A DNA stretch of 64,000 nt from Candidatus Magasanikiibacteriota bacterium (GCA_016182085.1 JACOYB010000004.1:339923-403922); one strand, 5' to 3'; numbered from the stretch's first letter, positions 5,087 through 62,735 are shown. Numbers and translations are program-made. Notes: generated from the letters alone by a model not told the origin.

Positions 5087-5211
5087 TATTTTTTTCTCCC
5101 GGTATCCATAATTTCAATAATTAAAGTTATGGATACGGCGGGAGGAATGGTGGCTGTTTTGTAACCACTCTCCGTATGGGGGTGTGGTTACTGGGTTGCG
5201 GCGTGTGGTCC

Positions 5212-5703
5212 CTAGGGTCGCAGGAAGACCTTCTCGAATTGGCACTTGGGGACGTTCATCCCGAAGCCCGTGATATCGTTGTTCATGAAGGCCTGTACGC
5301 CCTTGAGGCTGCAAAATCGATACCGCTTGCCACCTTCGCCCTGGTAGGTGATGATGGTTCGGCTTGGATTGGTCTTGGCCGTGATCGGGAAGATGCCGTA
5401 GTCGGTGGGCAAGATGCGCACCGTCTCGTCTTCGCCATCGCCATCGCCGTCGGGAAGGATCTCGAAGACCATGGGTTCGGGCAAGGACGGCACATGAATG
5501 GCGTACCTCGCGCCCCACCTGCCTTCGAGTTCCTCGATACCGGGAAGGTCGGAAACAATGATCCGATCGGGGTGAGTGGTCGTTGCGTCGACCGTGAAGG
5601 TGACCGGTGTCGAATCCACGGCGAGAGTGCGGTGGGTGCTCTGGCCGGCGCAGCCGACGAGAACGAGGATGAGAGCAGTGACAGAAACAATTCTGAGCAG
5701 CAT
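5212..5703 (-). CDS. predicted secreted lipoprotein (163 aa) on a roughly 60% GC island; function unknown
   Basis: N-terminus MLLRIVSVTALILVLVGCAGQ is a signal peptide with a lipobox LVGC. Codons are GC3-rich, unlike the host. A GGAG ribosome-binding site lies 9 nt upstream. The overlapping plus-strand and other-frame ORFs look like antisense artefacts. Confidence 0.6.
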   Translation of the reverse strand: MLLRIVSVTALILVLVGCAGQSTHRTLAVDSTPVTFTVDATTTHPDRIIVSDLPGIEELEGRWGARYAIHVPSLPEPMVFEILPDGDGDGEDETVRILPTDYGIFPITAKTNPSRTIITYQGEGGKRYRFCSLKGVQAFMNNDITGFGMNVPKCQFEKVFLRP

Positions 5704-5967
5704 AGCGTGGGCTCCTGTCGTTGACTTCTTGGTCTGCTGTATCCTCTCCCGGATACTGGGTTGCAGGGGATCCTGCCGAGAATTCTAGATAGAGAGACTA
5801 TCCACAATACTCGGCACTTCCCGATTTTAAAGGGCAAATAGGCTGTTTATATAAAATTTAACTTTTGTTTATCTGCTTTTAAGCAAACCATAAAATCCAA
5901 CTTTTGTCAAGTTTAGGCAGTTAATCCGTTTGTATGATATAATTTATAGTAAGCAATTAAAATTATT

Positions 5968-7149
5968 ATGTCCAGAGGTTTTGAAAATAAAAAAATCATT
6001 TTACATCAAGGAGTTTATAAAAGACCGGTATCGGTAGGCGACGCGATTTTTATGATTACGGGCATGAGTATTGGCGCCGGGATGTTGGGTATTCCCTATG
6101 TAGTGGCCCAAGTTGGTTTAAAAATCGGCATTGTCTATATTTTAGTACTGGGACTGGTGATGTTGTGTTTAAATTTAATGCTCGGAGATATAGCTGTGCG
6201 CACCAATGAACCTTTGCAAATTCCGGGACTGGTTGGCAGGTATTTAGGCAAGGGGCCAAAATATATTATCAATATTTTAGTTGTTTTCGGTTCATATAGC
6301 ACGCTGCTCGCCTATATATCGGGTGAGGGGCAGGCGCTAACAGCTTTATTTGGAGGGAGCCCAGTAGTTTGGAGTTTGGTATTTTGGACTATTGGGAGCG
6401 CTATAGTATGGCGAGGGCTGCAAACAATCAAAAGCGTAGAAAAGGTGTTGAGCCTTATCGTTATGAGTATAGTTATCGGAGTTTCTTTTTATATTCTACG
6501 GGATTTTGACATGACAGCCTGGGCCTATACCGATGTAAGTAAGATTTTCTTGCCGTACGGTGTGATTTTGTTCGCGTTAAACGCCACGCCAGCCATTATA
6601 GAAGCACATGCTTTATTGCCAAAAGATCAAAAAAGTTTTAAGAGAGCACTTATTATCGGCTCGCTTATACCCATGACCATTTATATTATTTTTGCTATAG
6701 CCGTAGTTGGGGCAACCGGACTGCAGACCACAGAGGTGGCAACTATTGGTTTGGGAGAGAAATTTGGCAAAGGGATCCTAGTTTTAAGTAATATTTTTGC
6801 GGTTCTGGCCATGAGCGCGGGTTTTATCGGTTCAGGAATTGCATTAAAACAAAATTTTGTTTGGGATAATAAAATACCTAAGATAATAGCAGAATTTTTA
6901 GTAATCTCGGTTCCTATTTTTTTGTTTTTACTGGGGCTGCGACACTTTATTGTAATTTTAAGCGTAGCTGGAGGATTGGTAATCGGCGTAGAAGCGGTGT
7001 TCCTTGTGTTAACCTGCTGGCAGGCTAGAAGAAAAGGCTATGTTAATGCCTCTGAATACGGCCTTCATCACTTTTGGCTTCTTGCCATTCCGGTTTTTTT
7101 GATTTTTAGCTGGGTAACGGTACAAAGCATGCTTAATTTTGTTAAATAA
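5968..7149 (+). CDS. amino-acid permease, HAAAP (Trp/Tyr permease Mtr/TnaB/TyrP-like) family
   Basis: About 11 predicted TM helices. The N-terminal ITGMSIGAGMLGIPY motif matches the GTAIGAGMLALP signature of aromatic amino-acid permeases. Confidence 0.6.
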   Translation: MSRGFENKKIILHQGVYKRPVSVGDAIFMITGMSIGAGMLGIPYVVAQVGLKIGIVYILVLGLVMLCLNLMLGDIAVRTNEPLQIPGLVGRYLGKGPKYIINILVVFGSYSTLLAYISGEGQALTALFGGSPVVWSLVFWTIGSAIVWRGLQTIKSVEKVLSLIVMSIVIGVSFYILRDFDMTAWAYTDVSKIFLPYGVILFALNATPAIIEAHALLPKDQKSFKRALIIGSLIPMTIYIIFAIAVVGATGLQTTEVATIGLGEKFGKGILVLSNIFAVLAMSAGFIGSGIALKQNFVWDNKIPKIIAEFLVISVPIFLFLLGLRHFIVILSVAGGLVIGVEAVFLVLTCWQARRKGYVNASEYGLHHFWLLAIPVFLIFSWVTVQSMLNFVK

Positions 7150-7170
7150 AAATCTCTAGTGAAGAAAAAA

Positions 7171-9412: not shown

Positions 9413-9478
9413 TCCTAGCATAAATTTACAATTTTGTCAATATTTAAGTTACATCCCCTGTACCTTTAAATAGCTAAT

Positions 9479-9500
9479 TTGTATACACTAGTGTATACAA
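9479..9500. promoter_or_regulatory. perfect 22-bp palindrome TTGTATACACTAGTGTATACAA (operator candidate)
   Basis: Exact dyad symmetry centred on ACTAGT; an identical copy lies 82 bp away. Confidence 0.6.
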
Positions 9501-9560
9501 ATTAAGTAAAAAAACCGCATGGTTAAGGCGCTTTGTGTAGTATTTCAGCATTATTTTATT

Positions 9561-9582
9561 TTGTATACACTAGTGTATACAA
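9561..9582. promoter_or_regulatory. second perfect copy of TTGTATACACTAGTGTATACAA, extended to ATTTTGTATACACTAGTGTATACAAAAT
   Basis: Identical to the 9479-9500 copy; lies in the HTH / ECF-sigma divergent intergenic region. Confidence 0.6.
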
Positions 9583-9734
9583 AATAATTAAATTTGTCAC
9601 AGCCTATCAGAGTCGGAGTTTTTTTTGAAATCAGCTCTTAAATATGTCTTAAAATTCAGGGTTTTTAATTTGACTTTTACCTATTATATTGTTATGATGT
9701 GTATCACTGAAATTATGGTAATAGAGGCAAAAGA

Positions 9735-10370
9735 TTGCAAAACTGTAACACTTTCCTTATTCCTACGTCTACTATAATGTCTAGAAGTAAAATCTCCGAA
9801 AAAATCCTCTTATTCAAGCTTCATACCCGGAAAGACCCGGAAGCTTTCGCAAAGTTATACGATATCTATGCTAGACGAATCTATAGCTTTATTTTTTTTA
9901 AAGTCGGTAACAGAGAAGAAGCGGAAGATATAACGTCAGAAGTTTTCTTAAAGGCCTGGCGTTACATAAATGAAAAAAAGAACATAGAAAGTTTCAGCGG
10001 ATTATTATATAAGCTGGCGCGCAATTCCATAATTGACCTTTACAGATCCAAAGCAAGCCAAAAAGAACTTTTGTCGGTAGATCAAGAAATTGAAGCTGAA
10101 CAAAAATTGGGAAGCACGGCCGTATGGGAAGCTGGCTTTGAAAAAAAGATTGGAGATAAAATTGAAGTGCAAAAAATAATTTTGGCGCTGCAGAAATTAA
10201 AACATGAATATAGAGAAGTGGTAACGCTCAGATATGTTGATGAGTTAGAGATAAGCGAGATAGCGGAAATTACCGGTAAAGGCCATATCTCAATCCGCGT
10301 TACATTGCACCGAGGTTTAAAAAAACTGAAACAAATTTTAGATCAAAATAAAAAATCCGAGAAACAATAA
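9735..10370 (+). CDS. ECF-type RNA polymerase sigma factor (sigma-70 regions 2 and 4)
   Basis: Region 2 EDITSEVFLKAWRYI...LARNSIIDLYR; region 4 EVVTLRYVDELEISEIAEITGKGHISIRVTLHRGLKKLK. The tracker start is a TTG at 9735; an alternative ATG at 9777 (MSRSKIS) directly follows a TATAAT box. Confidence 0.8.
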   Translation: MQNCNTFLIPTSTIMSRSKISEKILLFKLHTRKDPEAFAKLYDIYARRIYSFIFFKVGNREEAEDITSEVFLKAWRYINEKKNIESFSGLLYKLARNSIIDLYRSKASQKELLSVDQEIEAEQKLGSTAVWEAGFEKKIGDKIEVQKIILALQKLKHEYREVVTLRYVDELEISEIAEITGKGHISIRVTLHRGLKKLKQILDQNKKSEKQ

Positions 10371-10383
10371 GACTTAAGACTGT

Positions 10384-11724
10384 ATGTCAAAGGAAATAAT
10401 CAGACAATTAAAATCTTTGAAGCATACCGAAACTGGTCCGAGTGAAGCGTGGTTGAAAAAAAACCGCGAGCTTTTGTTGTCTCAAATTTCAAACACTATT
10501 TCGTCAAAAGAAAAAGAACATGTTAAATTAAATTCTGAAAATTTGTGGCAGGCCATGTCAATATTTCTGCCAAAGTCCGTTGTGTATACGGTAGTAAGAC
10601 CCGTCATGGTGGTGGTGCTTATTGCGGTGATGGGCGTAGGCAGTTGGGTTGCCACCGTAAGCGCGTCGTATGAATCATTGCCGGGTGAATGGCTGTATTC
10701 TGCCAAACGCGCTACGGAAAAAATTCAGGTAGCCGGGGCAGATGCGGTGGGAGACAAAAATAACGTGGCCAAGCTTCATTCCGAGTTTGCTTTAAAGAGA
10801 GCGGTGGAAATGAAAAAAATAATTTCTAAAGGCAGTCCAAACAATATAGAGGTAGCCGCTAAAACCGTAAATGATCTTAAAGATGAGATTAAAAGTATAA
10901 ATAATAACCTGGAAGAGTTGAAAGTAACGGCAGATTCCGGCGCGGAAGTGGTAAAAAATATCAATCAAAATGCCCAAGAAATAAAGGATGTTTTAAAAGA
11001 AGTAAAAGTAAATTTGCTGGTTAGTAACGATGATGTAAAGGCGAGCGATCTGTCTTCTCAGGTTTCAGAAGTAAAAAATTTAGTAAAGGATACGGCAGTT
11101 AAAGCGGTTGAAGTGATGGTAGAAAAGCATTTACAAGGCGACGCGAGCGTTTCCAAAGATGATGTTAAACAGGCTATTAACGACCAGTTGCAATCCGCTA
11201 TCAAAGACGCCGCCGATTCCAAACAAAGCATTGCTGAAGTAAATAAAGTAATCGGGGTGGTAAAAACAGAAGTTGCGGGGATTGCTCAAGATGCCAAGAC
11301 TGCGGCTGTGGTGAGCAGCACTCAGGCGTTGTCTGAAAAAGTAGAAGCTACCTCCAAGCAAACCCAAGCCGCTGTAAACACTTCGCAGCAATTTAATACG
11401 GAAACGGGAAAAACTGTAACCGAAGGACAAGAATTTCTATCTCAAGATAATTTAACGCAGGCAGTAAATAAAGTAAGAGAAGCAAATGCCGTAACCGCTC
11501 AAGCGGAAAAAATCACGGATGATACATTAAAGGCAGTGCAAAATATTTTACCGGTTGTAGCGGTTGCATCTGAAGGGGTGGCCATTACGAGCAGTAGTAT
11601 TATAATCGTAACTACTACTCCCATAACGAGCAGCTCAGGAAAAATTATTACTGTTTCCACAACTATAAAAGTAACTACATCCACTATTCCGGTAGTAATG
11701 CCAAAATCAACCAGTACGTTTTAG
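10384..11724 (+). CDS. membrane-anchored coiled-coil protein; candidate anti-sigma factor by position only
   Basis: Immediately downstream of the ECF sigma gene. About 60 aa cytoplasmic N-terminus, one TM helix (VVRPVMVVVLIAVMGVGSWVATV), a long coiled-coil-like extracytoplasmic region and a Thr/Ser/Ile-rich tail. Confidence 0.4.
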   Translation: MSKEIIRQLKSLKHTETGPSEAWLKKNRELLLSQISNTISSKEKEHVKLNSENLWQAMSIFLPKSVVYTVVRPVMVVVLIAVMGVGSWVATVSASYESLPGEWLYSAKRATEKIQVAGADAVGDKNNVAKLHSEFALKRAVEMKKIISKGSPNNIEVAAKTVNDLKDEIKSINNNLEELKVTADSGAEVVKNINQNAQEIKDVLKEVKVNLLVSNDDVKASDLSSQVSEVKNLVKDTAVKAVEVMVEKHLQGDASVSKDDVKQAINDQLQSAIKDAADSKQSIAEVNKVIGVVKTEVAGIAQDAKTAAVVSSTQALSEKVEATSKQTQAAVNTSQQFNTETGKTVTEGQEFLSQDNLTQAVNKVREANAVTAQAEKITDDTLKAVQNILPVVAVASEGVAITSSSIIIVTTTPITSSSGKIITVSTTIKVTTSTIPVVMPKSTSTF

Positions 11725-11758
11725 TACTTTAAAACCAAAACTATAAAAAATAATTCCT

Positions 11759-11812
11759 ATATCTCTTTCCTGCTTGAAATGAAAAGTTTCATGGCAGACA
11801 GGAGAGAGATAT
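11759..11812 (+). other. nested stem-loop in the long 5' leader of the surface-protein gene
   Basis: TATATCTCTTTCCTG...CAGGAGAGAGATAT forms a 14-bp arm with one mismatch, enclosing the inner palindrome ATGAAAAGTTTCAT. Confidence 0.4.
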
Positions 11813-12006
11813 GCCCGGTAATTACCTGAATTAATTTAGGAAAATGCCGAGCCTTAGGAAATCGTTAATCACGGTTTTTGCAAAAGGTCGAGGGCTTGTA
11901 AAAGCTCGCCAAACCATTGTATCCCGACCAATCGGGAAAAAGTTTAGTCCACTTACTTCTGACGTTAGTTGGATGCGCAGCGGGCTAAATAAATTTATTT
12001 TAATTT

Positions 12007-15000
12007 ATGACTGATGTATTAAAATCCGTAAAAAAAATCTTTACGGTTAGCGTTGTCGGCGCCACCATGTTGTGGTCCGTTGGCGTTTCGGCTTTGTTGC
12101 CATCTGTTGCTGACGCAGCAGTTTGTCCAACACTTGCCGCCGGTGACATGATCAAGGTATCTGGTAAACCAGCTATCTATTCTGTCGACAAAATGAGTAA
12201 AGTTCTATATTTCCCTTCCGGTGATGAATTCAAGAGCTGGAATGAAACTAACTCCTATGGTGGTTACGTAACTGTAACTCAGGAATGTTTTGATTCCTTG
12301 CCAGTTCCTAGCACATACCCAGGCGCAGTAAACTACCGCGCCGGTTCATACGTTGTAAAGAGACCTTCCTCTGATCAATTGTATGTTGTTGAGCCAGGAA
12401 ATAAATTAGCAAAAATTTCTACAACTGATGCTGCCGCTTTATATGGCGCTAGCTACAAAGTAATGACTGTTGCCGACGCTTTCTGGCCTCACTATGTAAA
12501 TAGAGGAGCCGATATTGCCGGTATGGTTCATGAAGGTATGCTCGTAAGTAAAGATGGTAAAACATGGCTTGTAGATGCCGGTAATGTACTTCGTGAAGTA
12601 ACAGCTACTGGTATGACCGCTAACAGATTCAAATCTGCTTTCGTTCATGCTGTACCTGCTTCCTACTTGACAGCTACTACCGTTGGTTCTCCAGTTACTG
12701 CCCTAGAATCTGTTCTGTCTAACAGAACTCAAGATGGTGCTATCACCACTCCAGGTCCAGTAGTTGGTGGCAACCTAAATGTTACTTTAGCCGCTGATAA
12801 TCCAGCTGCTGGTAACATTGCTGACGGTTCTGCTTACAACAGCGTCTTAAAATTAAACTTAAGCGCTAGCGCAGCTACTCAAGTTACCGGATTAACCTTA
12901 ACCAAGACTGGTCTTATTTCTAATACAAATATCTCCGGTGTTAGCGTTTGGGATTCTCAGGGTAACCGCAAAGGCGATGTAATGACTTCCTTAACTTCAG
13001 ATAATAAAATAACTGTAAGTTTTGGATCAAGTCCATTACTCGTAGGAGCTGGTAGCAGCGAATCTTTAACTGTTAAAGTTAATATCGCTCCTGCTGCTAA
13101 CTCTGGACTCGTAGGCTTTAGTCTAGCTGCCGCTGCTGATGTTGTAAGTAATGGTACTGTTGCCGGATCATTCCCAATCGTTGGTAACCAAATGGCTATC
13201 ATTGATGGTAATGCTTCCTTAGCTTCTACTACTATTTCTGGTCAATCAGTAGGTGGTTCCGCTTCTCAACCTGCTAGCACTGCTTCCGGTAACTTAAATA
13301 TTGGCGATCTACAAAAAGAAGTTGCCAAATTTAGATTCACCGAACAGACTGGCAATGAAGATGTGTCTATCTCTAGAATTACTTTCTACGTAGCTGGTAC
13401 TATTCAAGATACCGACCTAGCTAACTGGAGTGTTTACGCTCCAAGCGGAGAAAAACTTGGTATGACAGCCGCAATGAGCAATCGTTACGTAACTGTTAAC
13501 TTTACCACTCCTTATGTAGTACCTAAGAGCACAAACCGTGATCTTACTGTAAAAGTTGATGTTGTAAACGGTTCAACCCGCAACTTCAATGTTCATATTC
13601 AGAGTGATTACGATGTATTGATTAAAGGTGTTACTACCGGATTCTACATCTTGCCTGGTTCCTTCTCAGACACAACTAGTACAACTGGTTGGTTCAACAT
13701 GGGTTCAGGTACACTAACAGTTAACAAGGCCGTCACTTCTCCTTCTCTAAACATTTCTTCTGGCGCACAAAGTATTGTGTTAGCTAAATTTGATGTTAAA
13801 GCTGTAGGTGAGAACATGGAATTGCGCAAGATGGGTCTTGGTGTAAACCAGGCCGCCGGTTCCAAGACTAAATTAACTGGCAATGTAATTGTTCGTGACG
13901 CAACAGATGGAACTGTATACTTGACTATAGCTGCTTCCGGTGCTGCTGTGTACGGTAGTGCAACACAATATACCTTATCCAGTTACTTGAATCTTAACTC
14001 AAATCAGACAAAGACCCTTGAAGTAGTTGGTAGTGTTGATTCTACTGCAACTTCTGGTGTAAGCTATCAGGTACAAATTGGTAACTTCTATGGTAAGAGA
14101 CTTTCTACTTTAGACTTTGCTGACAACTTGCCAACTTCTGGCAACACCTCTACAGCTGCCAACCAATTAACAGTAAGCGCAACTTCGCTCACTTGTTACA
14201 AGGATACAGCTATGGGTAGTGTTACCCGTGCTCCAGGTGCTACTACCGTAATTGGTCAGTACATCTGTACAGCTGGTACATCTGAAGATGTTCGTTTGAC
14301 AAACGTTGGCGTAGCCTTTGGTCTTGTTTCCGGTATGGCTTCCAACATGTTCCAGAACTTAACACTTTGGAACGGATCTACTCAATTGGGCACATCTTTA
14401 AGCACTGTTGCAAGTACATCAAACAACTTCAACTTTGACTTAACTGTTCCAAAGAGTCAGACTGTAACCTTGCAACTCAAGGCACTCGTTGTAACCGGAG
14501 CTTCCGGAGTCGTAACCACATCTTTCTCCAGCTATAACTATACTGGTAAAGACAGCGGTACAAGCGGAACTGGAAGTATCGTAGCTGGTCAACAGATTAC
14601 TGTTGGCGCTGGTAACTTAAATGTTACTGCCGTATCCGATGCTACTACCCTTTCAAAGGTGTATGGTCCTAACCAGACTGGCGTACAATTAGGTAAATGG
14701 AAACTTGCAGCTGCTAATGATAATGTTACTTTGAGTAAATTAACATTACAGTCTGTATACTCCAACTTAAGTGGCGCTGTTACAACTCTTGGTACATATG
14801 GCAGCTTGTCATTGTATGATGGCTCAACCTTACTGGCCTCTGCTAGCTATGTAAATGGCGATGTAGTGTTCACTGGTTTCAGCTCCACAATTACAATGGA
14901 TAGTTATAAAGTTTACACTTTGAAAGGCACCACAAATGGTTCCGGTGTAATTACTAATAACACCTCCACTGCTTTCGTAGTAAAGAGCGACAGCAATACT

Positions 15001-16345: not shown

Positions 16346-16420
16346 GGGTTGGCAAGTGGTTTTTTATTAAAGAAAGCGGCTATAGAAGTATTGCAAAAGA
16401 TGAAAAGGAAAGCTCTTAGC

Positions 16421-16449
16421 TTGACAAATGACCTATTTTATTGTATATT
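16421..16449 (+). promoter_or_regulatory. sigma-70-type promoter of typA (TTGACA, 17-nt spacer, TATATT)
   Basis: cTTGACAaatgacctattttattgTATATT, about 50 nt upstream of the typA ATG. Confidence 0.55.
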
Positions 16450-16499
16450 GCCTGCACATTCTGCCGCGATTGGCAGAATTTTAAATTAGAAATACTTGT

Positions 16500-18305
16500 A
16501 TGAACATCCGCAACGTTGCCATCATCGCCCACGTAGACCACGGAAAGACCACACTTGTGGATGCTTTGTTGCGTCAATCCAAAACTAAATTATCCAAAGA
16601 ACAAGATAGTCAGATTACAATCATGGATAGTAATGATTTGGAACGTGAACGCGGTATTACGATTTTTTCCAAAAATGCTTCCGTAGAATGGAAAGATACA
16701 AAAATAAATATCATTGATACCCCGGGACACGCTGACTTTGGCGGGGAAGTAGAAAGAGTTTTGAAATTAGCTGATGGTTGTTTGTTGCTTGTAGACGCCA
16801 AAGAAGGCCCAATGCCTCAGACCAGATTTGTGCTCAAAAAAGCTTTGCAAATGGGGCATAAAGTAATTGTAGTTATAAATAAAATTGATAAACCAGGCGC
16901 CAGACCAAATTGGGTGCTAGACAAAACTTTTGATTTGTTTGTGGAACTTGGAGCCAGCGACGAAGTGGCTGAATTCCCAGTTATTTATGCTTCCGCCAAA
17001 AATGGTAAGGCCGGTATGGCACCGGATCTAGAAGCAATGACCGACATTACTCCTGTTTTTGATACGGTGTTAAAATTTATTCCTGAACCAAAAGTAGATC
17101 CAAATGCGCCGTTGCAAATACTCATTACTACTATTACCGGCGATAATTTTAAAGGTAGAATTGCGACTGGCAGAATCTATAACGGCACAATCAAAACTGG
17201 CCAAGATATAATGCATATAAATAGAGAAGGCGTAATGAAAAAATGCCGCGTTATGGCGCTCATGACATTTTTTGGTTTAGAAAGAATAGAAGTTCAAGAA
17301 GCGTTTGCCGGAGATGTGGTGGCTATTGCCGGTATTGGAGATATAAACATCGGTGAAACTGTGGCTGATGTTGCCAGCCCGGTTGCTTTGCCGCTTCTTA
17401 CCATAGAAGAACCAACTGTTAAAATGACTTTTAGTGTAAATAATTCTCCGTTTGCCGGAAAAGAAGGGGAATTTACCACTTCCAGACAGATTCGCGATAG
17501 ATTATTTAAAGAACTAGAAACAGACATGGCTCTAAAGGTGGCCGATGGTACCGAAGGCAATTGGATTGTTTCTGGCCGCGGTGAATTGCATTTAGCAATA
17601 CTTATCGAACGTCTGCGCCGAGAAGGATTTGAATTCCAGATTTCTCGTCCGCAAGTTATTATTAAAGAAGTTGATGGTCAAAAAATGACTCCTTATGAAC
17701 AAGTGTTTGTGGAAGTTCCCGAAGCTCATTCTGGAGCGGTAATCCAAAAGTTGGGCAGCCGCCACGGAGAATTACGAGAAATGAGAACCGAAAATGGCAT
17801 AGTTTTCTTAGAGTTTATTATTCCAACCCGCGGGTTGTTTGGTTATCGTACCGAATTTTTGACCGACACCAGAGGTTTGGGAATTATCAATACAATTTTT
17901 TATCAGTACATGCCGGATCCGGCCAATTGGCGCGAACGCGATCAAGGATCGCTTGTGGCTCACGAAACTGGTGTTACCAATTTGTATGGACTTCTTAATG
18001 TGCAAGACAGAGGAGTTATGTTTATTGGCCCTGGTGTGCAGGTTTACAAAGGCCAGGTAGTGGGTCAAAATGCGCGCAGTGAAGATATATCTGTAAATGT
18101 ATGTAAAGAAAAACAACTCTCTAACATGCGTTCCAAAGGCGATGGCGTGAGCGAACATTTTAACGCGCCAAAAGTTATGGATTTGGAAGAAGCGATGGAA
18201 TATATCGGTGATGATGAACTTGTAGAAATTACTCCAAAAAGCATTCGCATCAGAAAAGTTATCTTGGATGAAAGCGAAGCCAAACGAAAAGCACGGGGAA
18301 TGTAA
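16500..18305 (+). CDS. typA: translational GTPase TypA/BipA
   Basis: N-terminus MNIRNVAIIAHVDHGKTTLVDALL with G1-G5 motifs, an EF-G-like domain architecture, and a length of 601 aa. Confidence 0.92.
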   Translation: MNIRNVAIIAHVDHGKTTLVDALLRQSKTKLSKEQDSQITIMDSNDLERERGITIFSKNASVEWKDTKINIIDTPGHADFGGEVERVLKLADGCLLLVDAKEGPMPQTRFVLKKALQMGHKVIVVINKIDKPGARPNWVLDKTFDLFVELGASDEVAEFPVIYASAKNGKAGMAPDLEAMTDITPVFDTVLKFIPEPKVDPNAPLQILITTITGDNFKGRIATGRIYNGTIKTGQDIMHINREGVMKKCRVMALMTFFGLERIEVQEAFAGDVVAIAGIGDINIGETVADVASPVALPLLTIEEPTVKMTFSVNNSPFAGKEGEFTTSRQIRDRLFKELETDMALKVADGTEGNWIVSGRGELHLAILIERLRREGFEFQISRPQVIIKEVDGQKMTPYEQVFVEVPEAHSGAVIQKLGSRHGELREMRTENGIVFLEFIIPTRGLFGYRTEFLTDTRGLGIINTIFYQYMPDPANWRERDQGSLVAHETGVTNLYGLLNVQDRGVMFIGPGVQVYKGQVVGQNARSEDISVNVCKEKQLSNMRSKGDGVSEHFNAPKVMDLEEAMEYIGDDELVEITPKSIRIRKVILDESEAKRKARGM

Positions 18306-18414
18306 GATCAGTCCTTAAAGTTTATAAAGTTACGGATATTTTGACGGACAATTATTTTTTTGTTAAAGTTTATTAACTTGTGACTTTATAGACTTTTGAC
18401 TTTTCAAACTTCAA

Positions 18415-18486
18415 TGGCCCCATCGTCTATCAGTTAGGACACGACCTTCTCAAGGTTGAGAGACGGGTGCGATTCCCGTTGGGGCT
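18415..18486 (+). tRNA. tRNA-Glu (anticodon CTC)
   Basis: Acceptor GGCCCCA/TGGGGCT. The D-arm TCGTCTA...AGGACAC resembles bacterial tRNA-Glu. Anticodon stem CGACC/GGTTG with loop TTCTCAA; T-arm ACGGG-TGCGATT-CCCGT. The T-loop is slightly non-canonical. Confidence 0.7.
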
Positions 18487-18487
18487 A

Positions 18488-18524
18488 CAAATATAAAAGA
18501 CACCGTTTTGGTGTCTTTTATATT
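18488..18524. terminator. perfect palindromic (bidirectional) terminator hairpin
   Basis: AAATATAAAAGACACCGTTTTGGTGTCTTTTATATTT. The flanks extend into an imperfect 35-bp inverted repeat that includes an inverted copy of the tRNA T-arm (CAACGGGAATCGCAG, 18536-18550). Confidence 0.7.
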
Positions 18525-18526
18525 TG

Positions 18527-18660
18527 TTAGGGTCCACAACGGGAATCGCAGGGAAAGGGTGAAAACGGAAGTTTTCACTTGCTGAGGAAAGTCCACGAAA
18601 ACCCGAAGGTTTTCGTGAGAGCCCGCTTGCGGGCGAGCGATGCCCTAGTTGGGGCTACAA
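18527..18660 (+). ncRNA. candidate structured RNA / integration-scar segment: three perfect tetraloop hairpins plus a GAGGAAAGUCC motif, ending in a degenerate copy of the tRNA-Glu T-arm and 3' acceptor
   Basis: Hairpins GTGAAAAC-GGAA-GTTTTCAC (18558-18577), CACGAAAACC-CGAA-GGTTTTCGTG (18593-18616) and GCCCGC-TT-GCGGGC (18620-18633); GAGGAAAGTCC at 18584-18594. GTTGGGGCTACAA at 18647-18659 directly repeats the tRNA 3' end at 18477-18489. Confidence 0.35.
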
Positions 18661-18704
18661 CTCCACAAACCGAACACTTCTGGTCGTTTCTGGAGATAAG
18701 TTGA

Positions 18705-18735
18705 TAAAAGCCATCTTAGATGAGATGGCTTTTAT
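18705..18735 (+). terminator. terminator-like hairpin AAAAGCCATCTTAGATGAGATGGCTTTT
   Basis: Perfect 10-bp stem, 8-nt loop, followed by a T-rich tract. Confidence 0.55.
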
Positions 18736-18772
18736 GATTTATCGAAGAACGTCAATTCTATTATATGGCGAT

Positions 18773-18801
18773 CTTGACAAAACGCTCATTTTATGGTATT
18801 A
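18773..18801 (+). promoter_or_regulatory. near-consensus sigma-70 promoter with extended -10 (TTGACA, 17 nt, TGgTATTAT) driving the GC-rich membrane-protein ORF
   Basis: cTTGACAaaacgctcattttaTGgTATTAT, then a CCTCAGC...GCTGAGG leader hairpin and a GGAGG ribosome-binding site 6 nt before the ATG at 18870. Confidence 0.6.
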
Positions 18802-18869
18802 TCGACTGTTTCCTCAGCCTAGCAGCTTTATGGCTTTTAAGCTGAGGAAATCAATCCTCGGAGGTTCCC

Positions 18870-19505
18870 ATGGAAAACGTCTGGGTCGGTATCGTTCTGT
18901 TCGCTCTCGCTGCCACCTGCCTCGCTCTCGTCGAGATCGAGTCGGAGGGCAAGCACGGGTGGGCAGAGAAGTTGCCCACCTGGTACCGCACCAAGGGCCG
19001 ACTGGCGCGGATCTACGCCATCATCATGGCGAAGAAGCCGCTCACCGGCTATCACCTCTGGATGTTCTTCTTCCCGATCTTCTTCTTCCACTTCCAGTTC
19101 GCCTTCGCGTCCTGGTCGCTGGAGAAGGAGCTGCTCACCTGGGCGGTCTATTTCGCCTGGTGTGTGCTGTGGGACTACCACTGGTTCGTCATGAACCCCG
19201 CCTATAAGGGCAGGTTCAAGAAGGACTACGTCTGGTGGCATGCGAAGAGCGCTTGGGTGTTCGACTGGTTTCCGGTCGACTACCTGGTGGGCACGGGCTT
19301 CTCGTTCGTGCTCGCAGCCGGAGCAGCCTTGGTCGCTGGCAACAGCGGCGTGTTGCTCAACCACTTCTATGTGGTGGCGGGTTGGTGGGGCTATACGGCG
19401 ATCCTCAAGATCATCGTGAGTCCATACTACCATCGCTGGCATATCAAGATGCATCATTGGTCGCGTGACCAACGCGACCAAGTCGACATCTTCCACCAGG
19501 ACTAA
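18870..19505 (+). CDS. Trp-rich polytopic membrane protein (211 aa) of unknown function on a roughly 60% GC island
   Basis: Strong GC3 codon bias unlike the host. Four to five hydrophobic segments, W-rich (WDYHWFVMNPAYKGRFKKDYVWWHAKSAWVFDWFPVDY), GGAGG ribosome-binding site. The overlapping antisense ORFs look spurious. Confidence 0.6.
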   Translation: MENVWVGIVLFALAATCLALVEIESEGKHGWAEKLPTWYRTKGRLARIYAIIMAKKPLTGYHLWMFFFPIFFFHFQFAFASWSLEKELLTWAVYFAWCVLWDYHWFVMNPAYKGRFKKDYVWWHAKSAWVFDWFPVDYLVGTGFSFVLAAGAALVAGNSGVLLNHFYVVAGWWGYTAILKIIVSPYYHRWHIKMHHWSRDQRDQVDIFHQD

Positions 19506-19575
19506 ACCCTCACGGACGCGCCACCGCAAGGCGTCTGATGGGACACAAAGAAAGGAGCAGTACTTGCGGTCTCAT

Positions 19576-19609
19576 CAAAAACAACTTTCACCCGAAGGTT
19601 GTTTTTGTT
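19576..19609 (+). terminator. rho-independent terminator after the GC-rich membrane-protein gene
   Basis: AAAAACAACTTTCACCCGAAGGTTGTTTTTGTTT. Confidence 0.65.
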
Positions 19610-19929
19610 TATGTTATATTTGAGAGGTGGTAAGTAAGTAGACAGTAGAGAGGAGTCGTGATATTATGGCGGTAATATTAGTTTTTTATTACTACTTAAT
19701 AACATAGGTCCAAACACCAGCCACCTCTCCTTTATCTCCTGAACTAAGGTGTGCCAGAAAAAAGACAAGTAGGCTACACCAAAAACTAAAAAACCGTTCG
19801 CAAATTCCTCCTGCTTTACCTCTAAGTTAATATTTAGAAATAAAGCAGATGGGCGAACGGTTTTTTGTTTCCCACCTATTTTTTAAAGGTGGGCCGCGAA
19901 TGTACATGGTTCCTCCTGTGAACGGTTGT

Positions 19930-21072
19930 TCAGCGAACGGCGAGGGTGTTCCCGCCGAACTCGATGCCCAGCGGACTGATCACGACCTTCTTCTCGCTGC
20001 TCGCCTCGATGTGGCCGGCGACGTAGGCCTGGAACGGCTGGCCCTGCGCTGCCTCGAGCACCTTGCTCACGTCCTCGGGGGCAACGTAGATCGCGAAGCC
20101 CGCACCCATGTTGAAGGTGCTATAGGCTTCCTTGTCGCTGACCGGTCCGTGCTGCTGGATGAAGCGGAAGATCGGCGACGGGTTGGGCGGCAGCTCGTCG
20201 ATCACGTAGGTGAAGTTGCCCTCCGCGCGCATGAGCTTGCGCCAGCCGTGCCCCGTCACGTTGACGGCGTAGTGGATGTCGATCCCAGTCATCTGGCACG
20301 AACGGATGAGCTCGACATAGATGTGCGTCGGGTCGAGCAGCATCTCGCCGTACGTCTGGCGCATGTTGACCTGGGTGAGGTAGCCGTCCGGAAGCTTCTT
20401 GGCGATCTTGCGCGCGAGCGTGTATCCGTTGGCGTGGACTCCCGAGCTCGTGAACATCACGATGACGTCGCCGTCCTTGATGCGGCCCGGGTTGATGACC
20501 TTCTCCTTGGGTGCGATGATGCCCGTGGCCGAACCCGAGAGGACGGCCGTGAGCGGCAGGACGATACCCTGGAGCGTCGGTGTCTCGCCTCCGCCCCAGA
20601 CGCAGCCGGCCTGGAGGCAGGCGCGCTTCGTCCCCTCAACCAAGTCATGGCAGCGACGGTCGTTCTTGAACCAGTCCGAGTCGCCGACAGCGAGGTGCTG
20701 GGCGTAGGAGACCGGCAGCGCGCCGAGCGTGATCATGTCATTGACTGCCATCGCCACGTTGCACTGGGCAACCTGGTCGTAGAAGGTTCTCGTGCGGCCA
20801 GCGAAGCTGATGCCGTCCACGAGCTGGAGCATGGCGTCGGCCACCAAGTTCTTGGTGCCGAGGCCTTCCTCGACGTGGGCGATGTAGCCCCAGGGCGTCT
20901 CGATGAGGAACGCGCTCTCACCACGGCTCCACCCGACCACCTTGAATCCGAACCGGTCGGCACACCGATCCGTATCCCGGGCGGCAAGCTGCGCCACCCG
21001 CTTGAACGGATCCATGGTGTCGTAGTTAACGCCGGTAGCGGCGTAGGTCAGACCCTTTTTGGAGTCACTCAT
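19930..21072 (-). CDS. purM: PurM-family protein (phosphoribosylformylglycinamidine cyclo-ligase / AIR synthase-like), divergent, about 62% GC
   Basis: Blocks alignable to E. coli PurM: GVNYDTMDPFKR (GVDIDAGNALVER), EGLGTK (DGVGTK), VAMAVNDMITLGALP (VAMCVNDLVVQGAEP), CLQAGCVWGGGET (CLQSGCSLVGGET), DGDVIVMFTSSGVHANGYTLARKI ([24 protein letters not shown]) and YSTFNMGAGFAIYV (YRTFNCGVGMIIAL). The start is taken at MSDSKKG (ATG 21070-21072) because the upstream in-frame extension is AT-rich host-like sequence. The gene is convergent with the membrane-protein ORF. Confidence 0.65.
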   Translation of the reverse strand: MSDSKKGLTYAATGVNYDTMDPFKRVAQLAARDTDRCADRFGFKVVGWSRGESAFLIETPWGYIAHVEEGLGTKNLVADAMLQLVDGISFAGRTRTFYDQVAQCNVAMAVNDMITLGALPVSYAQHLAVGDSDWFKNDRRCHDLVEGTKRACLQAGCVWGGGETPTLQGIVLPLTAVLSGSATGIIAPKEKVINPGRIKDGDVIVMFTSSGVHANGYTLARKIAKKLPDGYLTQVNMRQTYGEMLLDPTHIYVELIRSCQMTGIDIHYAVNVTGHGWRKLMRAEGNFTYVIDELPPNPSPIFRFIQQHGPVSDKEAYSTFNMGAGFAIYVAPEDVSKVLEAAQGQPFQAYVAGHIEASSEKKVVISPLGIEFGGNTLAVR

Positions 21073-21259
21073 TGATGTTTTCTCCCGAAAAGTTGTTGGG
21101 TTTCGTAAGCAAAAACTATCATAAAGGGAGAAATAATTCAAGGGTTTTTAGAAACTGCGTAGTTTGCAATTTTGAATATTTTATTTATTATTTTTGACAT
21201 CCTACAAAAAACCTGTCATTCTAATTTTATCAACAATTGTAGAAAGAAGTGGGGGAACC

Positions 21260-21727
21260 ATGAAACGCACACTGCTGTATCAAATATGGATTCTGTTTTT
21301 GATCTACACCGTGTGGTCTTTGGCCAGTGAGGCAGTGTTTACCGGGGTGGCAGATATAATCCGGGATTATCAGGCGGGTAGACCGTTCAACTCTCATCTG
21401 CCTTGTCGTACCAGTCTTTGGAGTATCCTGGTCTATGGCGTTCCGGCCAGCTTGGGTTTTACTTTCGTTGACAGGCTGGTACCTGGATTCTTCAAGTGGC
21501 ACTGGGCTAAGCGGGGATTCATCTATACCATCGGCACATTTGCCTCTGAATACGCTTGGGGTGATTTTCTGGAATGGCTCACAGGGAGTTGTCCGTGGCA
21601 ATACAGAGATTCGTCAATTGCCCTGCTGCGCTATATCAATCCCGAGTACTTTCTGTTGTGGTTCATGTTCGGCTTTTCTTTGGAGTGGATTAGGGTAAAA
21701 CTCCTTCCAAGGATAATCGGCATCTAG
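21260..21727 (+). CDS. hypothetical polytopic membrane protein (about 156 aa), intermediate GC (about 49%)
   Basis: MKRTLLYQIWILFLIYTVWSLA... with several hydrophobic segments. A GGGGGAA ribosome-binding site precedes the ATG at 21260. The tracker's 21194 start would cross AT-rich intergenic sequence. Confidence 0.5.
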   Translation: MKRTLLYQIWILFLIYTVWSLASEAVFTGVADIIRDYQAGRPFNSHLPCRTSLWSILVYGVPASLGFTFVDRLVPGFFKWHWAKRGFIYTIGTFASEYAWGDFLEWLTGSCPWQYRDSSIALLRYINPEYFLLWFMFGFSLEWIRVKLLPRIIGI

Positions 21728-21756
21728 GCCTAAATCTTGGAATGATAAGGAGCACC

Positions 21757-21793
21757 CCCGCGTATGTTAGTGATACGCGGGTTGTTGTTTTTA
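21757..21793 (+). terminator. rho-independent terminator
   Basis: CCCCCGCGTATGTTAGTGATACGCGGG followed by TTGTTGTTTTT. Confidence 0.7.
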
Positions 21794-21885
21794 TAATTAG
21801 ATTTTATTTTTTAAATAAAGTAATCCATTGACAATTACCTAAAAAATTGTTAGCCTAATTTTTACAAAACCACAAGGAGTTCCTA

Positions 21886-22827: not shown

Positions 22828-22925
22828 TCGTGGCCCCCTGTATCTGCAGGTGGCCTTTGCATTTTAGATTGACCAACAGTACTTTTTTTTGTATACTATT
22901 TTTTCAAAGTTACTACATTAAATCT

Positions 22926-24013: not shown

Positions 24014-24106
24014 TTGTCATTCCGACCAAAGTGGAGGAATCCCTTAAACATAGCTTATTGTAGTAATTAAGTGTAAGGGATCCCTCGGCTACGCTCGGGA
24101 TGACAA
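24014..24106. repeat. palindromic element, copy B (intergenic, overlaps the annotated start of the PLD-family gene)
   Basis: TTGTCATTCCGACCAAAGTGGAGGAATCCCTTAAAC...TAAGGGATCCCTCGGCTACGCTCGGGATGACAA. Confidence 0.7.
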
Positions 24107-43502: not shown

Positions 43503-43537
43503 AAAAAGCCCTCCAACGTTACGTCGGAGGGCTTTTT
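43503..43537. terminator. bidirectional terminator AAAAAGCCCTCCAACGTTACGTCGGAGGGCTTTTT
   Basis: Serves the GC-rich ORF (+) and era (-). Preceded by two long imperfect inverted repeats (43374-43417 and 43426-43481). Confidence 0.75.
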
Positions 43538-43558
43538 AGTTGGCTATTATACAGTCAG

Positions 43559-45089: not shown

Positions 45090-45175
45090 TTGTCATTCTG
45101 AGCAAAGCGAAGAATCTCTGTCCAGCTGATCAAGATAGTACTGATAGAGATCCTTCATTTCATTCAGGATGACAA
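45090..45175. repeat. palindromic element, copy D
   Basis: TTGTCATTCTGAGCAAAGCGAAGAATCTCTGTCC...GAGATCCTTCATTTCATTCAGGATGACAA; about 29-nt arms are imperfect reverse complements. Confidence 0.7.
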
Positions 45176-45212
45176 ATGTGTTTATAAAACAGTATTAAAC
45201 AAGTTATAAATT

Positions 45213-53147: not shown

Positions 53148-53955
53148 TTACGAAAAATCAATTTGGGGTCATGGTCGGGCAAGCATCAAGTTAAGCTCGC
53201 CGACCAGTTTTAGGTTGCGCCAAAGTTTGAGTTCAATTAAAGCTCTCGCCGGCGGCGCCAAAGTTATGGAACTTGGCAGTGGCGCGGGGCAGTTTATACG
53301 TGAAATTAAGGCCATCAGACCGGACTTAGAGTGTTATGGGTCTGATATTAGCGAACACGCTATTAACTTAGCCAAACAGGCAAATGACGGCGTGCAATAT
53401 GACTTAAGCGCTGAAAAGAAATTGCCATACGCGGATAATTTTTTTGATGCTATTTTGATTTTTGACGTCTTGGAACATGTGGAAAATCCGGGCGCGATTT
53501 TTTCCGAAGTGCACAGAACTTTAAAAAGCGGAGGGGTCTTTTATGCCTTTGTGCCGTGTGAAGGGGATTTTTTGTCTTTTTGGAATTTACTGCGAAAATT
53601 CGGGGTGGGAGCAAACCTTACAAAAATGTATGCTGGGCATATTAACCGATTTTCCCGCGAAGAATTGGTGGCCACGGTAAAAGCTTTCGGGTTTGAAATT
53701 AAAAAAATTAGATATAGCGAACATATATTAGGACAGTTTTTAGGCCTGGCTTCATTTTTTTCCATGGATAGATTTGCCAAGAAGAATAATCTGCAACAGG
53801 TAAATAATGAGCAGTATTTTTACGATTTAAGCCAAAAGGGCGGAGGAGTGTTGCGGCTGGTAAAAAATTTGGTAAATACGGCGGTGGCGTTAGAGTCTAT
53901 GCTTTTTTCCAGGCTGCCATCGCCAAATGTGCATTTAACAGTTATTAAGAAATAG
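53134..53955 (+). CDS. class I SAM-dependent methyltransferase
   Basis: VMELGSGAGQF (motif I), CYGSDIS, DAILIFDVLEHVENP. Confidence 0.75.
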   Translation: MGKFDYEKSIWGHGRASIKLSSPTSFRLRQSLSSIKALAGGAKVMELGSGAGQFIREIKAIRPDLECYGSDISEHAINLAKQANDGVQYDLSAEKKLPYADNFFDAILIFDVLEHVENPGAIFSEVHRTLKSGGVFYAFVPCEGDFLSFWNLLRKFGVGANLTKMYAGHINRFSREELVATVKAFGFEIKKIRYSEHILGQFLGLASFFSMDRFAKKNNLQQVNNEQYFYDLSQKGGGVLRLVKNLVNTAVALESMLFSRLPSPNVHLTVIKK

Positions 53956-53965
53956 CCAACTAAAC

Positions 53966-54114
53966 TGTCATCCCGAGCGAGCCTCGCGGCGACGCCCGCC
54001 CGTACCGAACGTGTACGTTCGGGCGGGAGGGATCTCTGTCTGTCATTCCCATCGCAATGGGAATCCAGTATCCGGTCAGATTGTGTGGATTCCCGCTTTC
54101 GGCGGGAATGACAA
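53966..54114. repeat. palindromic elements, tandem copies E1 and E2
   Basis: CTGTCATCCCGAGCGAGCCTCGCGG...GGGAGGGATCTCTGTC, then TGTCATTCCCATCGCAATGGGAATCC...GGATTCCCGCTTTCGGCGGGAATGACAA; both are GC-rich hairpin-formers. Confidence 0.65.
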
Positions 54115-61638: not shown

Positions 61639-61698
61639 AGAATTTTTCTAAACACTATTGTAACAGAAAAAGTTTAGTTTGGGTAGCCTTTTAAATAC

Positions 61699-61727
61699 AA
61701 AACATCCCGATTTAGTCGGGATGTTTT
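61699..61727. terminator. bidirectional terminator AAAACATCCCGATTTAGTCGGGATGTTTT (near-identical to 37878-37908)
   Basis: One loop substitution relative to the other copy. Confidence 0.8.
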
Positions 61728-61893
61728 AATATAGAGCAAATGGCTCTCGCTATAGTTACAAGATTTATAACGATAGCGAGTAGGAGCCATTTGCGTGCGT
61801 GCCCCTGCCCGCGCCCGCGTGTATGCGACAGGGACTGGAGCACCAGAGCGCCGACGGGGGGTGGTCTAGTAGGCCCGCCCATGCTGCGGAGGT

Positions 61894-62463
61894 TCAGGGC
61901 TGATTTTGCCAGTAACCGTAACAGGATGTCTCCAGCGTCGGCTTGCGGACAGTCTTGGCCGTGTCCGGACAGCTCTGGTGGAACGTCCACAGCGGCGAGG
62001 CTGCGTCGGCTGCCTGGATATCACTTTCAAGATCCAGGTTCGGTAACCACGCTCCGTAGAGGTAGCAGATGCCGGGCTTGTCGTCCGGGCACACGAACTG
62101 CGTCCCGGGAACTTTGGGCGGGTACTTCTCCTCCGTGGCCCGGAGCATGCGGTTGAGCTCATCGATGAGGGCCTTCTGCTTCCGCATGACATGCAGCAGG
62201 TCGGCTTCGAGCGCGTCCTTCTCGTTGATGAGATTGTTCTTCAGATTGATGACATCGTCCTTCGCCTCGACGATCTCGTTCTTCTGCTCGACCGTGTGCA
62301 CCCATAAGAAGGTGGTAACGGTAAAGAGGAAGAAGTTCAAGACGGTGGCCGCAATCATGATGCGCCTCCATTCCTTGAGCCGGCCGTTTTCGGCCGTGAG
62401 ATCCTGGATTTGCTCCTGGGGGGAGCTGGTCGTCGTTTCGCGTGAGGATTCCATGATAGTCAC
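61894..62463 (-). CDS. hypothetical single-pass membrane protein with a coiled coil and Cys-containing C-terminal domain (189 aa) on a roughly 60% GC island
   Basis: TM helix IMIAATVLNFFLFTVTTFLWV; coiled coil LKNNLINEKDALEADLLHVMRKQKALIDELNRML; C-terminal region with 4 Cys. GC3-rich codons. A host-type promoter TTGACAaaacctcatttttatgcAATCAT lies upstream on the minus strand. The plus-strand ORFs over the same DNA are Arg/Pro-rich antisense artefacts. Confidence 0.55.
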   Translation of the reverse strand: MTIMESSRETTTSSPQEQIQDLTAENGRLKEWRRIMIAATVLNFFLFTVTTFLWVHTVEQKNEIVEAKDDVINLKNNLINEKDALEADLLHVMRKQKALIDELNRMLRATEEKYPPKVPGTQFVCPDDKPGICYLYGAWLPNLDLESDIQAADAASPLWTFHQSCPDTAKTVRKPTLETSCYGYWQNQP

Positions 62464-62735
62464 CAGCCTTGTGAGGGTTTCTACTCTAGCGTTTCGGAAT
62501 ACGCCTGAGCATACTTGTGAAAAGAAACCAAAGCAGTTTTTCCGATACCTGCTCTGATAACTAAATGTGCTATATAATAGTTAGCACGCTTAGTTATTAA
62601 AGCAATAATATATGATTGCATAAAAATGAGGTTTTGTCAACAGGTAGACGCCCGTTTTATGTTTGGAAAATTCTTTGTTTCTTTGCTATACTATGTTCAT
62701 ATTTTAGTAGCTTAATAGTTTATTGTTTATCCGTT

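Follow-up and report, generated by a model that had tools for sequence, protein, structure and literature searches.

We conclude that the GC-rich islands in a 64,000 nt chromosomal stretch of Candidatus Magasanikbacteria, an ultra-small groundwater bacterium of the Patescibacteria or candidate phyla radiation (CPR), are probably horizontally acquired accessory genes, and that the strong islands among them are likely to be autonomous one-gene cassettes which stem from high-GC donors and slowly ameliorate. The whole stretch is called the window in the following. Its islands are numbered 1, 2a, 3, 4 and 5; a PurM-like gene as well as a pair consisting of a membrane protein gene and a kinase gene follow 2a and were, together with 2a, treated as "island 2" in a preliminary description of this DNA. 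The open reading frames (ORFs) or cores of islands 1, 2a, PurM-like, 4 and 5 are referred to as the five strong ones. Corrected start codons were used for PurM (ATG 21072), the membrane protein (ATG 21260) and island 5 (ATG 62358), the last of which agrees with a 154-aa database entry. TypA, encoded at 16500-18305, is 95–97% identical to TypA of three metagenome-assembled genomes (MAGs), two of them labelled Candidatus Magasanikbacteria or Magasanikiibacteriota, and the next 30 TypA matches all belong to Patescibacteria. The island proteins are themselves found as database entries "Candidatus Magasanikbacteria bacterium HYT15_*", encoded on a contig of 410,459 bp. Related loci and contigs used for comparison carry labels between L005 and L121, with L005 being a sister MAG of about 86–97% nucleotide identity to the window over backbone segments and genes.

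Two-state likelihood segmentation delimited five GC-rich segments (5135-5779, 18855-19544, 19889-21055, 42683-43438 and 61783-62442), each with 59–64% GC and pooled at 61.4% versus 41.0% in the rest of the window. Compared with non-island 400-bp windows (mean GC 0.411, standard deviation 0.038), the islands lie at z = 5.1–6.5, i.e., 5.1–6.5 standard deviations above the background. Five GC-rich islands had been described before and are retained, but the backbone, formerly given as 38%, has 41% GC. Among the segments included before, island 3 (26.5–27.06 kb, 52% GC) and the membrane protein plus kinase genes (21.2–22.8 kb, 47–51%) are far milder than the other five. GC content at third codon positions (GC3) is 0.77–0.89 in the five strong ORFs versus 0.33–0.44 in 19 host genes, which confirms the strong codon bias stated earlier, and takes intermediate values of 0.54–0.63 in island 3, the membrane protein and the kinase. 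Relative synonymous codon usage correlates among the five cores (0.62–0.87) and with genes of the 65%-GC contig L090 (r = 0.75–0.92), versus −0.26 to −0.41 with host genes. Islands and host genome thus differ in their base composition as well as in the codons they prefer. Long antisense ORFs occur in the islands, as had been reported. The GC-rich core comprises the ORF, 15–76 nt upstream including the Shine-Dalgarno sequence (SD), and 40–110 nt downstream; promoter, distal leader and terminator of the cassettes are AT-rich and contiguous with the core.

A second contrast between islands and host concerns translation signals. An SD (GGAG, GAGG or GGGGG at most 20 nt from the start codon) precedes all eight island ORFs (8/8), compared with at most 5/46 host ORFs, where only weak 4-mers occur (Fisher P = 1.2e-6). 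The earlier claim of strong GGAGG-like sites missing in host genes therefore stands. Nearly all host genes (about 46 ORFs) are without an SD and have AT-rich leaders, so that translation in this Magasanikbacteria lineage would start independently of an SD. The coupling of a GC-rich ORF with an SD is also seen in other related loci, e.g., in L087, where the 2a homolog has GGAGG and most neighbours are without a strong SD. In such a host, a foreign GC-rich gene may be retained only along with a strong SD, because its mRNA would be more structured at the start codon and would probably not be expressed otherwise.

The predicted promoters, on the other hand, are of host type, as proposed before. 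The architecture cTTGACAaaa-N-aTTTTATGnTAtnaT is present at the islands at 5910(-), 18774(+), 26455(+), 42580(+) and 62640(-), and likewise at the host promoters at 16421 (typA), 9440(-), 29105 and 39813, so that the putative island promoters fit the lineage's own consensus. Terminators formed by a hairpin and a T-run close cassettes 1, 2a, 3 and 4 according to a terminator scan, and the hairpin of island 5 was found by direct reading. As predicted from sequence, all five strong islands have their own promoter and their own terminator around a single gene. The hairpin of island 5 (61699-61727) is nearly identical to one at 37879-37907 after a host gene (AAAACATCCCGAyTTAGTCGGGATGTTTT; chance expectation 0). 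In a divergent intergenic region near the 9440(-) promoter, two copies of the perfect palindrome TTTGTATACACTAGTGTATACAAA lie 82 bp apart (9475-9510 and 9557-9592) and look like a putative operator arrangement.

Presence and absence in syntenic relatives were compared for 2a, the whole tRNA-Glu block, and islands 3 and 4. In the sister MAG L005, exactly 18660-19778 is missing, i.e., 2a together with its promoter and terminator. In L006, L008, L011 and L014, dus follows about 10–170 nt after tRNA-Glu and the entire region 18489-22925 is missing; L007, L009 and L012 have different inserts at this tRNA-Glu site. Island 3 is missing in L006, L009, L011 and L014. The site of island 4 consists of 12–53 bp between the convergent peptidase and era genes in L103, L105, L116, L110 and L106, and further relatives have unrelated small AT-rich ORFs there; none carries the island-4 gene. 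Compared with related genomes, 2a, the tRNA-Glu block and islands 3 and 4 are therefore extra DNA of different GC content and accessory, having been gained or lost among syntenic relatives. PurM at this locus is restricted to the window and L005. At the equivalent locus, L007 and L012 carry homologs of the membrane protein and of the kinase (38–49% identity), and L013 carries one of the membrane protein. Consequently, "island 2" is not one island but three units of different age. The look at related genomes, which had been suggested along with a sliding-window analysis, thus revealed sporadic islands and empty sites. The earlier picture of scattered acquisitions, for the most part of single genes, whose composition and ribosome-binding sites are foreign and which lie behind host-type promoters, is supported.

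For genes shared with L005, ratios of nonsynonymous to synonymous divergence (dN/dS) between the window and L005 are 0.32 (PurM-like gene), 0.18 (membrane protein) and 0.38 (island 3), compared with 0.03–0.17 for host genes. As synonymous divergence (dS) is comparable to that of host genes (0.2–0.5), these genes were present in the common ancestor of the window and L005. Judging from these ratios, the common island genes are under purifying selection and evolve faster than core genes. Among neighbouring host genes within 6000-29000, dS to L005 ranges from 0.09 to 0.75, and this unevenness indicates a mosaic which would have arisen from inter-strain recombination.

Two cassettes were found in distant AT-rich genomes. 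The 2a gene has a homolog of 82% protein identity in L086, where it lies in a different context after a tRNA with a GC content of 0.61 within flanks of 0.40; homology between window and L086 sets in at the −35 hexamer and stops where the terminator ends. PurM has a homolog of 63% protein identity on the 39%-GC contig L094 (270 kb), and here homology reaches from the −35 box to just past the long-hairpin terminator, with the non-coding ends being 0.7–0.95 identical and the middle of the ORF 0.5–0.7. Within a 60-nt patch of PurM, the window matches L094 and L005 does not, which we read as a trace of recombination. A 212-aa ORF beside the L094 PurM cassette was tested as a 2a homolog, which would have hinted at a functional linkage, and is not homologous. 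The promoter of island 3 behaves differently: it aligns with the gdh promoter of relatives that have no island, and the insert contributes a terminator along with another promoter-like site serving gdh. In L007, the place of the island-3 ORF is taken by a GC-rich ORF of 252 aa which is unrelated to it, is led by an SD and is framed by the homologous promoter and the homologous terminator-plus-gdh-promoter. The island-1 promoter is present at the equivalent position in L008, L011 and L014. The shortness of the empty island-4 sites implies that promoter and terminator either came with the insert or arose afterward. Insertion next to existing promoters, as previously assumed for the islands, thus applies to island 3 and agrees with the ancestral promoter of island 1, but not to 2a, PurM and island 4, where promoter and terminator are part of the transferred or inserted unit (or, in island 4, may be later additions). 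A transcript as the source of the GC-rich stretch, i.e., mRNA-mediated transfer, was considered and has no specific support, as the core starts well past the predicted transcription start (about 100 nt in island 1) and ends before the terminators.

Protein collections were searched for relatives of the cargo. The 2a family has at least 178 clusters and every named member is from Patescibacteria. PurM-like has thousands of homologs, and nearly all of its named top matches (about 60% identity) are CPR, the exception being one short contig labelled Methylococcales. In contrast to these, just one relative of the island-4 protein is contained in 5.8 billion clusters, and 1.84 billion representatives include two of the island-5 protein besides itself; no relatives of the island-1 lipoprotein were detected in a scan of a metagenome collection. 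A 2a homolog is native to the uniformly 65%-GC contig L090, accompanied by genes resembling type IV secretion system pilins. Since the families are Patescibacteria-wide and the codon usage matches L090, a high-GC reservoir within the phylum is the most economical donor, and the cores most likely derive from high-GC donors, either high-GC Patescibacteria or a phylum-wide gene pool. GC-rich, SD-led ORFs of a like kind exist at L007, L026, L042, L094, L086, L085 and L121. In L042, from more distant Patescibacteria, four GC-rich ORFs (57–64%) form a string straight after typA (9600-12850 and 16400-18400), separated by AT-rich spacers and with a clear SD in 3/4, so that an equivalent situation exists in the same neighbourhood. 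In agreement with such a donor, a catalog for groundwater Patescibacteria reports hundreds of genomic islands and individual transfers, mostly intra-phylum (PMC12455944). In view of these ORFs and the abundance of transfer within the phylum, the islands are not unusual for the lineage, contrary to what had been supposed.

Abrupt switches of composition would also be expected if an assembler or binner had joined foreign GC-rich fragments into an AT-rich contig, and the Logan contigs L001 and L002 both end at 43451, within the 3′ region of island 4. The preliminary description had left room for such chimerism or contamination. However, contigs of independent Logan assemblies of the runs SRR12113430 and SRR12113420 cross the junctions at 100% identity, and one of 4,950 bp leads from typA over tRNA-Glu, 2a, PurM-like and the membrane protein into the kinase. 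Further, L005 carries the PurM/membrane/kinase block and island 3 at equivalent positions with 78–93% nucleotide identity and host-like dS, analogous cassettes are found in AT-rich contigs from other studies and continents, and the AT-rich ends are continuous with the GC-rich cores. Chimerism is therefore refuted as far as assemblies allow, and we regard it as extremely improbable. A biological alternative is that the genes are native or long resident and their high GC is actively maintained, by selection on mRNA structure, by SD-dependent translation or by GC-biased gene conversion among cassette alleles. This would agree with the GC enrichment of the 2a family in the AT-rich L086 and L087 and of PurM in L094, L120 and L121, with the gene-conversion-like patch in PurM, with the 63%-identical PurM copies which keep GC3 > 0.8 and common AT-rich ends, and with a GC3 of the PurM-like gene of 0.89 in the window and 0.87 in L005 at a dS of 0.41. 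We dropped the unchanged GC3 as a proof of maintenance, because the two copies differ by 43 synonymous third-position exchanges between G/C and A/T, where about 42 are expected under neutral decay according to the clock of the neighbouring rarA and gdh genes. In addition, the GC-rich stretch takes in untranslated regions (UTRs), so the effect is not at the codon level; empty sites in close relatives speak for recent gain, homologs in a uniformly 65%-GC genome offer a plausible reservoir, and a PurM-like gene in L095 has no GC enrichment. More A/T third positions are found in the window copies of 2a (16 versus 5 in L086) and island 4 (20 versus 6 in L085). Although the exchange count is unpolarised, these comparisons favour genes of foreign origin which are still approaching the composition of the host, at a pace close to neutral. 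Active maintenance thus appears improbable, while the recurring GC-enriched, SD-led families (L087, L094, L120 and L121) leave room for re-entry from a reservoir or, less likely, for maintenance.

The islands might instead have been carried in or left behind by integrative mobile elements or prophages, that is, true morons or mini-islands from a recombinase-bearing element since lost. Two of the five loci abut tRNA genes (island 1 tRNA-Val, the island-2 block tRNA-Glu), and 12 nt exactly matching the tRNA-Glu 3′ end recur at 18649-18660, 170 nt downstream of the tRNA; the 3′ end of tRNA-Val is not repeated on the far side of island 1. GGCTACA is found at 18483, 18653 and 19772, of which the last two are the borders on both sides of the 2a insert; such a pattern of tRNA-end repeats would be expected from serial site-specific integration at the tRNA end. 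In L086 (1232-4511), the 2a cassette is situated between a tRNA 3′ end and genes for a large serine recombinase and an N6/N4 DNA methyltransferase, and this stretch may be a minimal integrative element. The PurM cassette of L094 belongs to a tRNA-Ser-adjacent block with methyltransferase and helicase genes, and PHROGs places PurM-like proteins under "moron/auxiliary metabolic gene". Nevertheless, we judge a mobile-element origin unlikely. No phage or recombinase gene or remnant was found in the window, where PHROGs matches are confined to generic ones for the kinase and PurM and where tblastn with the L086 serine recombinase detected no remnant of it beside 2a; each island is filled by its cargo ORF. 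In IMG/VR, neither relatives of the 2a, PurM and island-4 proteins nor a match to the 2a leader were found, apart from one weak 33% partial match which was disregarded. Islands 3, 4 and 5 are not beside tRNAs, and the neighbouring genes are all housekeeping genes (murG, tRNAs, typA, dus, rarA, gdh, murA, an S41 peptidase gene resembling ctpA, and era), with dnaK being a further housekeeping gene of the window. A more far-reaching idea, which we consider improbable, would have Patescibacteria draw on a common stock of one-gene cassettes that are ready for expression. A dedicated mechanism would exchange them at favoured sites between genes, with the conserved AT-rich ends as recombination or recognition handles. 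This would amount to a dispersed, promoter-bearing analog of integron cassettes, whose GC-rich, SD-dependent design might be maintained and mark them off from the SD-less host mRNAs. A repeat search over the whole window yielded no repeat family common to the cassettes, only the one terminator twin.

Acquisition of one-gene cassettes from high-GC donors therefore remains our preferred explanation, even though several points weigh against it. No integrase, transposase or common recombination site was found in or beside any island in the window, the repeat flanking 2a has just 7 nt, and a candidate 8-nt attachment-site repeat in L086 contains a mismatch. No donor genome was found for islands 1, 4 and 5, which are orphans or near-orphans among 1.8–5.8 billion proteins. 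Promoters, terminators and SD use are sequence predictions, and the estimate of amelioration is unpolarised. Further, PurM-like copies which are 63% identical occur in two AT-rich genomes, both with GC3 > 0.8 and homologous AT-rich ends; a single recent transfer followed by decay fails here unless entry from a GC-rich reservoir was repeated. The course of acquisition can be outlined as follows. A cassette consists of a predicted AT-rich sigma-70-type promoter of the lineage's consensus, a 5′ UTR, a GC-rich core with a strong SD and a predicted AT-rich terminator with hairpin and T-run. Such units are gained, lost and replaced at intergenic sites, two of the five loci being beside tRNA genes, and some move between distant AT-rich genomes as a whole, with both promoter and terminator. 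At least one core (island 3) was inserted downstream of a resident promoter, bringing a terminator and a replacement promoter. Integration may rely on a trans-acting recombinase at tRNA 3′ ends or on DNA uptake with illegitimate or short-homology recombination, the latter being as compatible with the data as site-specific integration. Afterward, foreign GC-rich, structure-prone mRNAs would be kept in the SD-less host only with a strong SD, and the cores would drift toward the composition of the host, roughly at the neutral rate; the shared island genes are retained by purifying selection.

The cargo is heterogeneous, as had been recognized before, and includes a lipoprotein, several membrane proteins, a PurM-family enzyme, a Hanks kinase and two soluble orphans (Table 1). 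Judging from annotation only, this mostly envelope- or surface-related cargo suggests possible niche or host-interaction functions. No match for islands 1, 2a, 3, 4 and 5 was obtained in Pfam, NCBIfam, PADLOC and PHROGs. The 2a protein yields a confident helical membrane model (predicted local distance difference test, pLDDT, of 88) without a match among solved structures. The best solved relatives of the PurM-like protein are PurM enzymes (E = 1e-33), and the AlphaFold model of the island-4 protein is unreliable (pLDDT 40). A role of the kinase as a defence gene was set aside, since its PD-T4-6 and MADS6 matches are those of a generic kinase domain. Likewise, the islands are not known RNA genes, as the only Rfam matches are three tRNAs.

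Table 1. Coordinates of the islands, their predicted signals and adjoining RNA features in the window (SD, Shine-Dalgarno sequence; UTR, untranslated region).
Feature	Position	Strand	Remarks
tRNA-Lys	4771-4844		
tRNA-Val(TAC)	4967-5041	+	abuts island 1
Island 1 cassette	5042-5912	-	−35 TTGACA 5910-5905; long 5′ UTR; GC-rich core 5135-5779
Island 1 lipoprotein ORF	5212-5703	-	163 aa; signal with LVGC lipobox; SD AGGAG 8 nt before ATG
Island 1 terminator	5042-5086		predicted; bidirectional, 20-bp stem; common to convergent tRNA-Val
tRNA-Glu(CTC)	18416-18488	+	left border of variable 4.4-kb block 18489-22925
Structured-RNA-like element	18533-18662	+	conserved; ends in exact 12-nt copy of tRNA-Glu 3′ end, GTTGGGGCTACA
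Island 2a insertion	18660-19778	+	1119 bp; flanks GGCTACA 18653-18659 and 19772-19778
Island 2a promoter	18774-18802	+	predicted; followed by hairpin 5′ UTR and SD GGAGG; terminator 19576-19607
Island 2a ORF	18870-19505	+	211-aa Trp-rich helical membrane protein
PurM-like cassette	19785-21145	-	−35 TTGAAT at 21141; SD GGGAG; GC-rich 3′ UTR
PurM-like ORF	19930-21072	-	380 aa; AIRS/AIRS_C
PurM-like terminator	~19785-19868	-	predicted; long hairpin
Mildly GC-enriched older pair	21194-22827	+	membrane protein and kinase
Membrane protein	21260-21727	+	promoter-like site at 21194
Hanks-type Ser/Thr kinase	21886-22827	+	SD AGGAG
Island 3	26455-27168	+	promoter 26455-26484, homologous to ancestral gdh promoter
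Island 3 ORF	26552-26953	+	133 aa; no homologs outside L005
Island 3 terminator	~27093-27125	+	predicted
Second promoter-like site of island 3	27141-27168	+	now serving gdh
Island 4	42511-43558	+	1.05-kb insertion between convergent S41 peptidase and era genes
Island 4 promoter	42580-42608	+	predicted; SD AGGAGG; GC-rich 3′ UTR; terminator 43502-43538
Island 4 ORF	42719-43366	+	215 aa; near-orphan
Island 5 cassette	61699-62640	-	promoter 62640-62612; SD GGAGG 6 nt before ATG 62358
Island 5 ORF	61894-62358	-	154 aa; single transmembrane helix, coiled coil, Cys-rich C-terminus/ectodomain
Island 5 3′ end		-	GC-rich 3′ UTR of ~110 nt; terminator hairpin 61699-61727, twin of 37879-37907

Some further elements were observed in the window. 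The structured-RNA-like element directly after tRNA-Glu is a multi-stem element of about 130 nt which is conserved in L005 and L007, the latter having an extra 32-nt hairpin. Three of its base pairs are kept by compensatory changes, it contains GAGGAAAGUCC- and AGGGUGAAA-like motifs, and it matches no Rfam family. A 17-nt exact copy of the tRNA-Val 5′ end (GGGCGTTTAGCTCAGTT) at 4904-4920, 63 nt upstream of tRNA-Val, may be a relic of rearrangement or integration. Small palindromic repeats of the form TGTCATCC...GGGATGACA are found at 23687-23750, 24070-24105, 29222-29277, 45163-45187 and 53951-53973. One copy is inside dus, in its 3′ portion, which in relatives is about 66 bp shorter, and the family may be similar to miniature inverted-repeat transposable elements or repetitive extragenic palindromic sequences.

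How Patescibacteria acquire new surface and metabolic functions is a matter of current research, since their genomes are tiny and they rely on other cells. The window shows ordinary horizontal transfer into a Patescibacteria genome, in unusually tidy packaging, and not an artefact. Worth recording are the complete split between acquired genes with and native genes without an SD, the promoter-to-terminator cassettes across distant AT-rich genomes, and the replacement of cores in one frame. The SD split is a natural experiment on what foreign mRNA needs for translation in an SD-independent bacterium, and in genomes of this kind an SD makes it easy to flag genes that were acquired. Transfer of whole cassettes and unrelated cores in one regulatory frame hint at how compact genomes add genes while neighbours are undisturbed. 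Moreover, the window presents a dated series with one gain after the split from the sister strain, two before that split and one older, and the empty sites in relatives allow steps of domestication to be read directly. For genome curation, it follows that GC-rich patches in MAGs of CPR bacteria should not be cut out as contamination.

Among known systems, classical islets and tRNA-adjacent islands subject to amelioration are those of the Lawrence and Ochman model. The islands resemble them in their atypical composition and codon usage, their sporadic occurrence in close relatives and their gradual decay toward the host, and the two loci abutting tRNA genes, with their candidate tRNA-end repeats, recall tRNA-adjacent islands. 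However, the units here comprise 0.7–1.2 kb and one gene, are without integrase or mobility genes, and have host-like regulatory ends which in two cases travel with the gene. With integron cassettes, they have in common that they are small, single-ORF and interchangeable, and that one locus carries unrelated ORFs behind a resident promoter. Unlike integron cassettes, they have no attC-like common site and no IntI, are dispersed, and mostly bear promoter and terminator. The catalog of horizontal transfers mentioned above covers the same phylum and habitat, with islands and single transfers mostly within the phylum. The passages of it retrieved by search term do not contain cassette anatomy, SD contrast, promoter-to-terminator conservation or core replacement, and "promoter" occurs 0 times in its text (PMC12455944). 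The closest parallel concerns phage morons, a concept of Hendrix and Juhala for extra DNA which is absent from related genomes, differs in GC and has its own promoter and terminator (PMC3594210). Like morons, the islands are additions compared with relatives, have a GC content unlike their neighbours, form putative independent transcription units with a single gene of heterogeneous kind and spread horizontally. In contrast to morons, they lie between housekeeping genes of a cellular chromosome instead of a phage or prophage, with no phage genes nearby; the 2a, PurM and island-4 proteins and the 2a leader are without IMG/VR relatives, and the host is a Patescibacterium that otherwise does without SD. 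As the phage context does not apply, the islands are best described as moron-like chromosomal cassettes rather than as morons.

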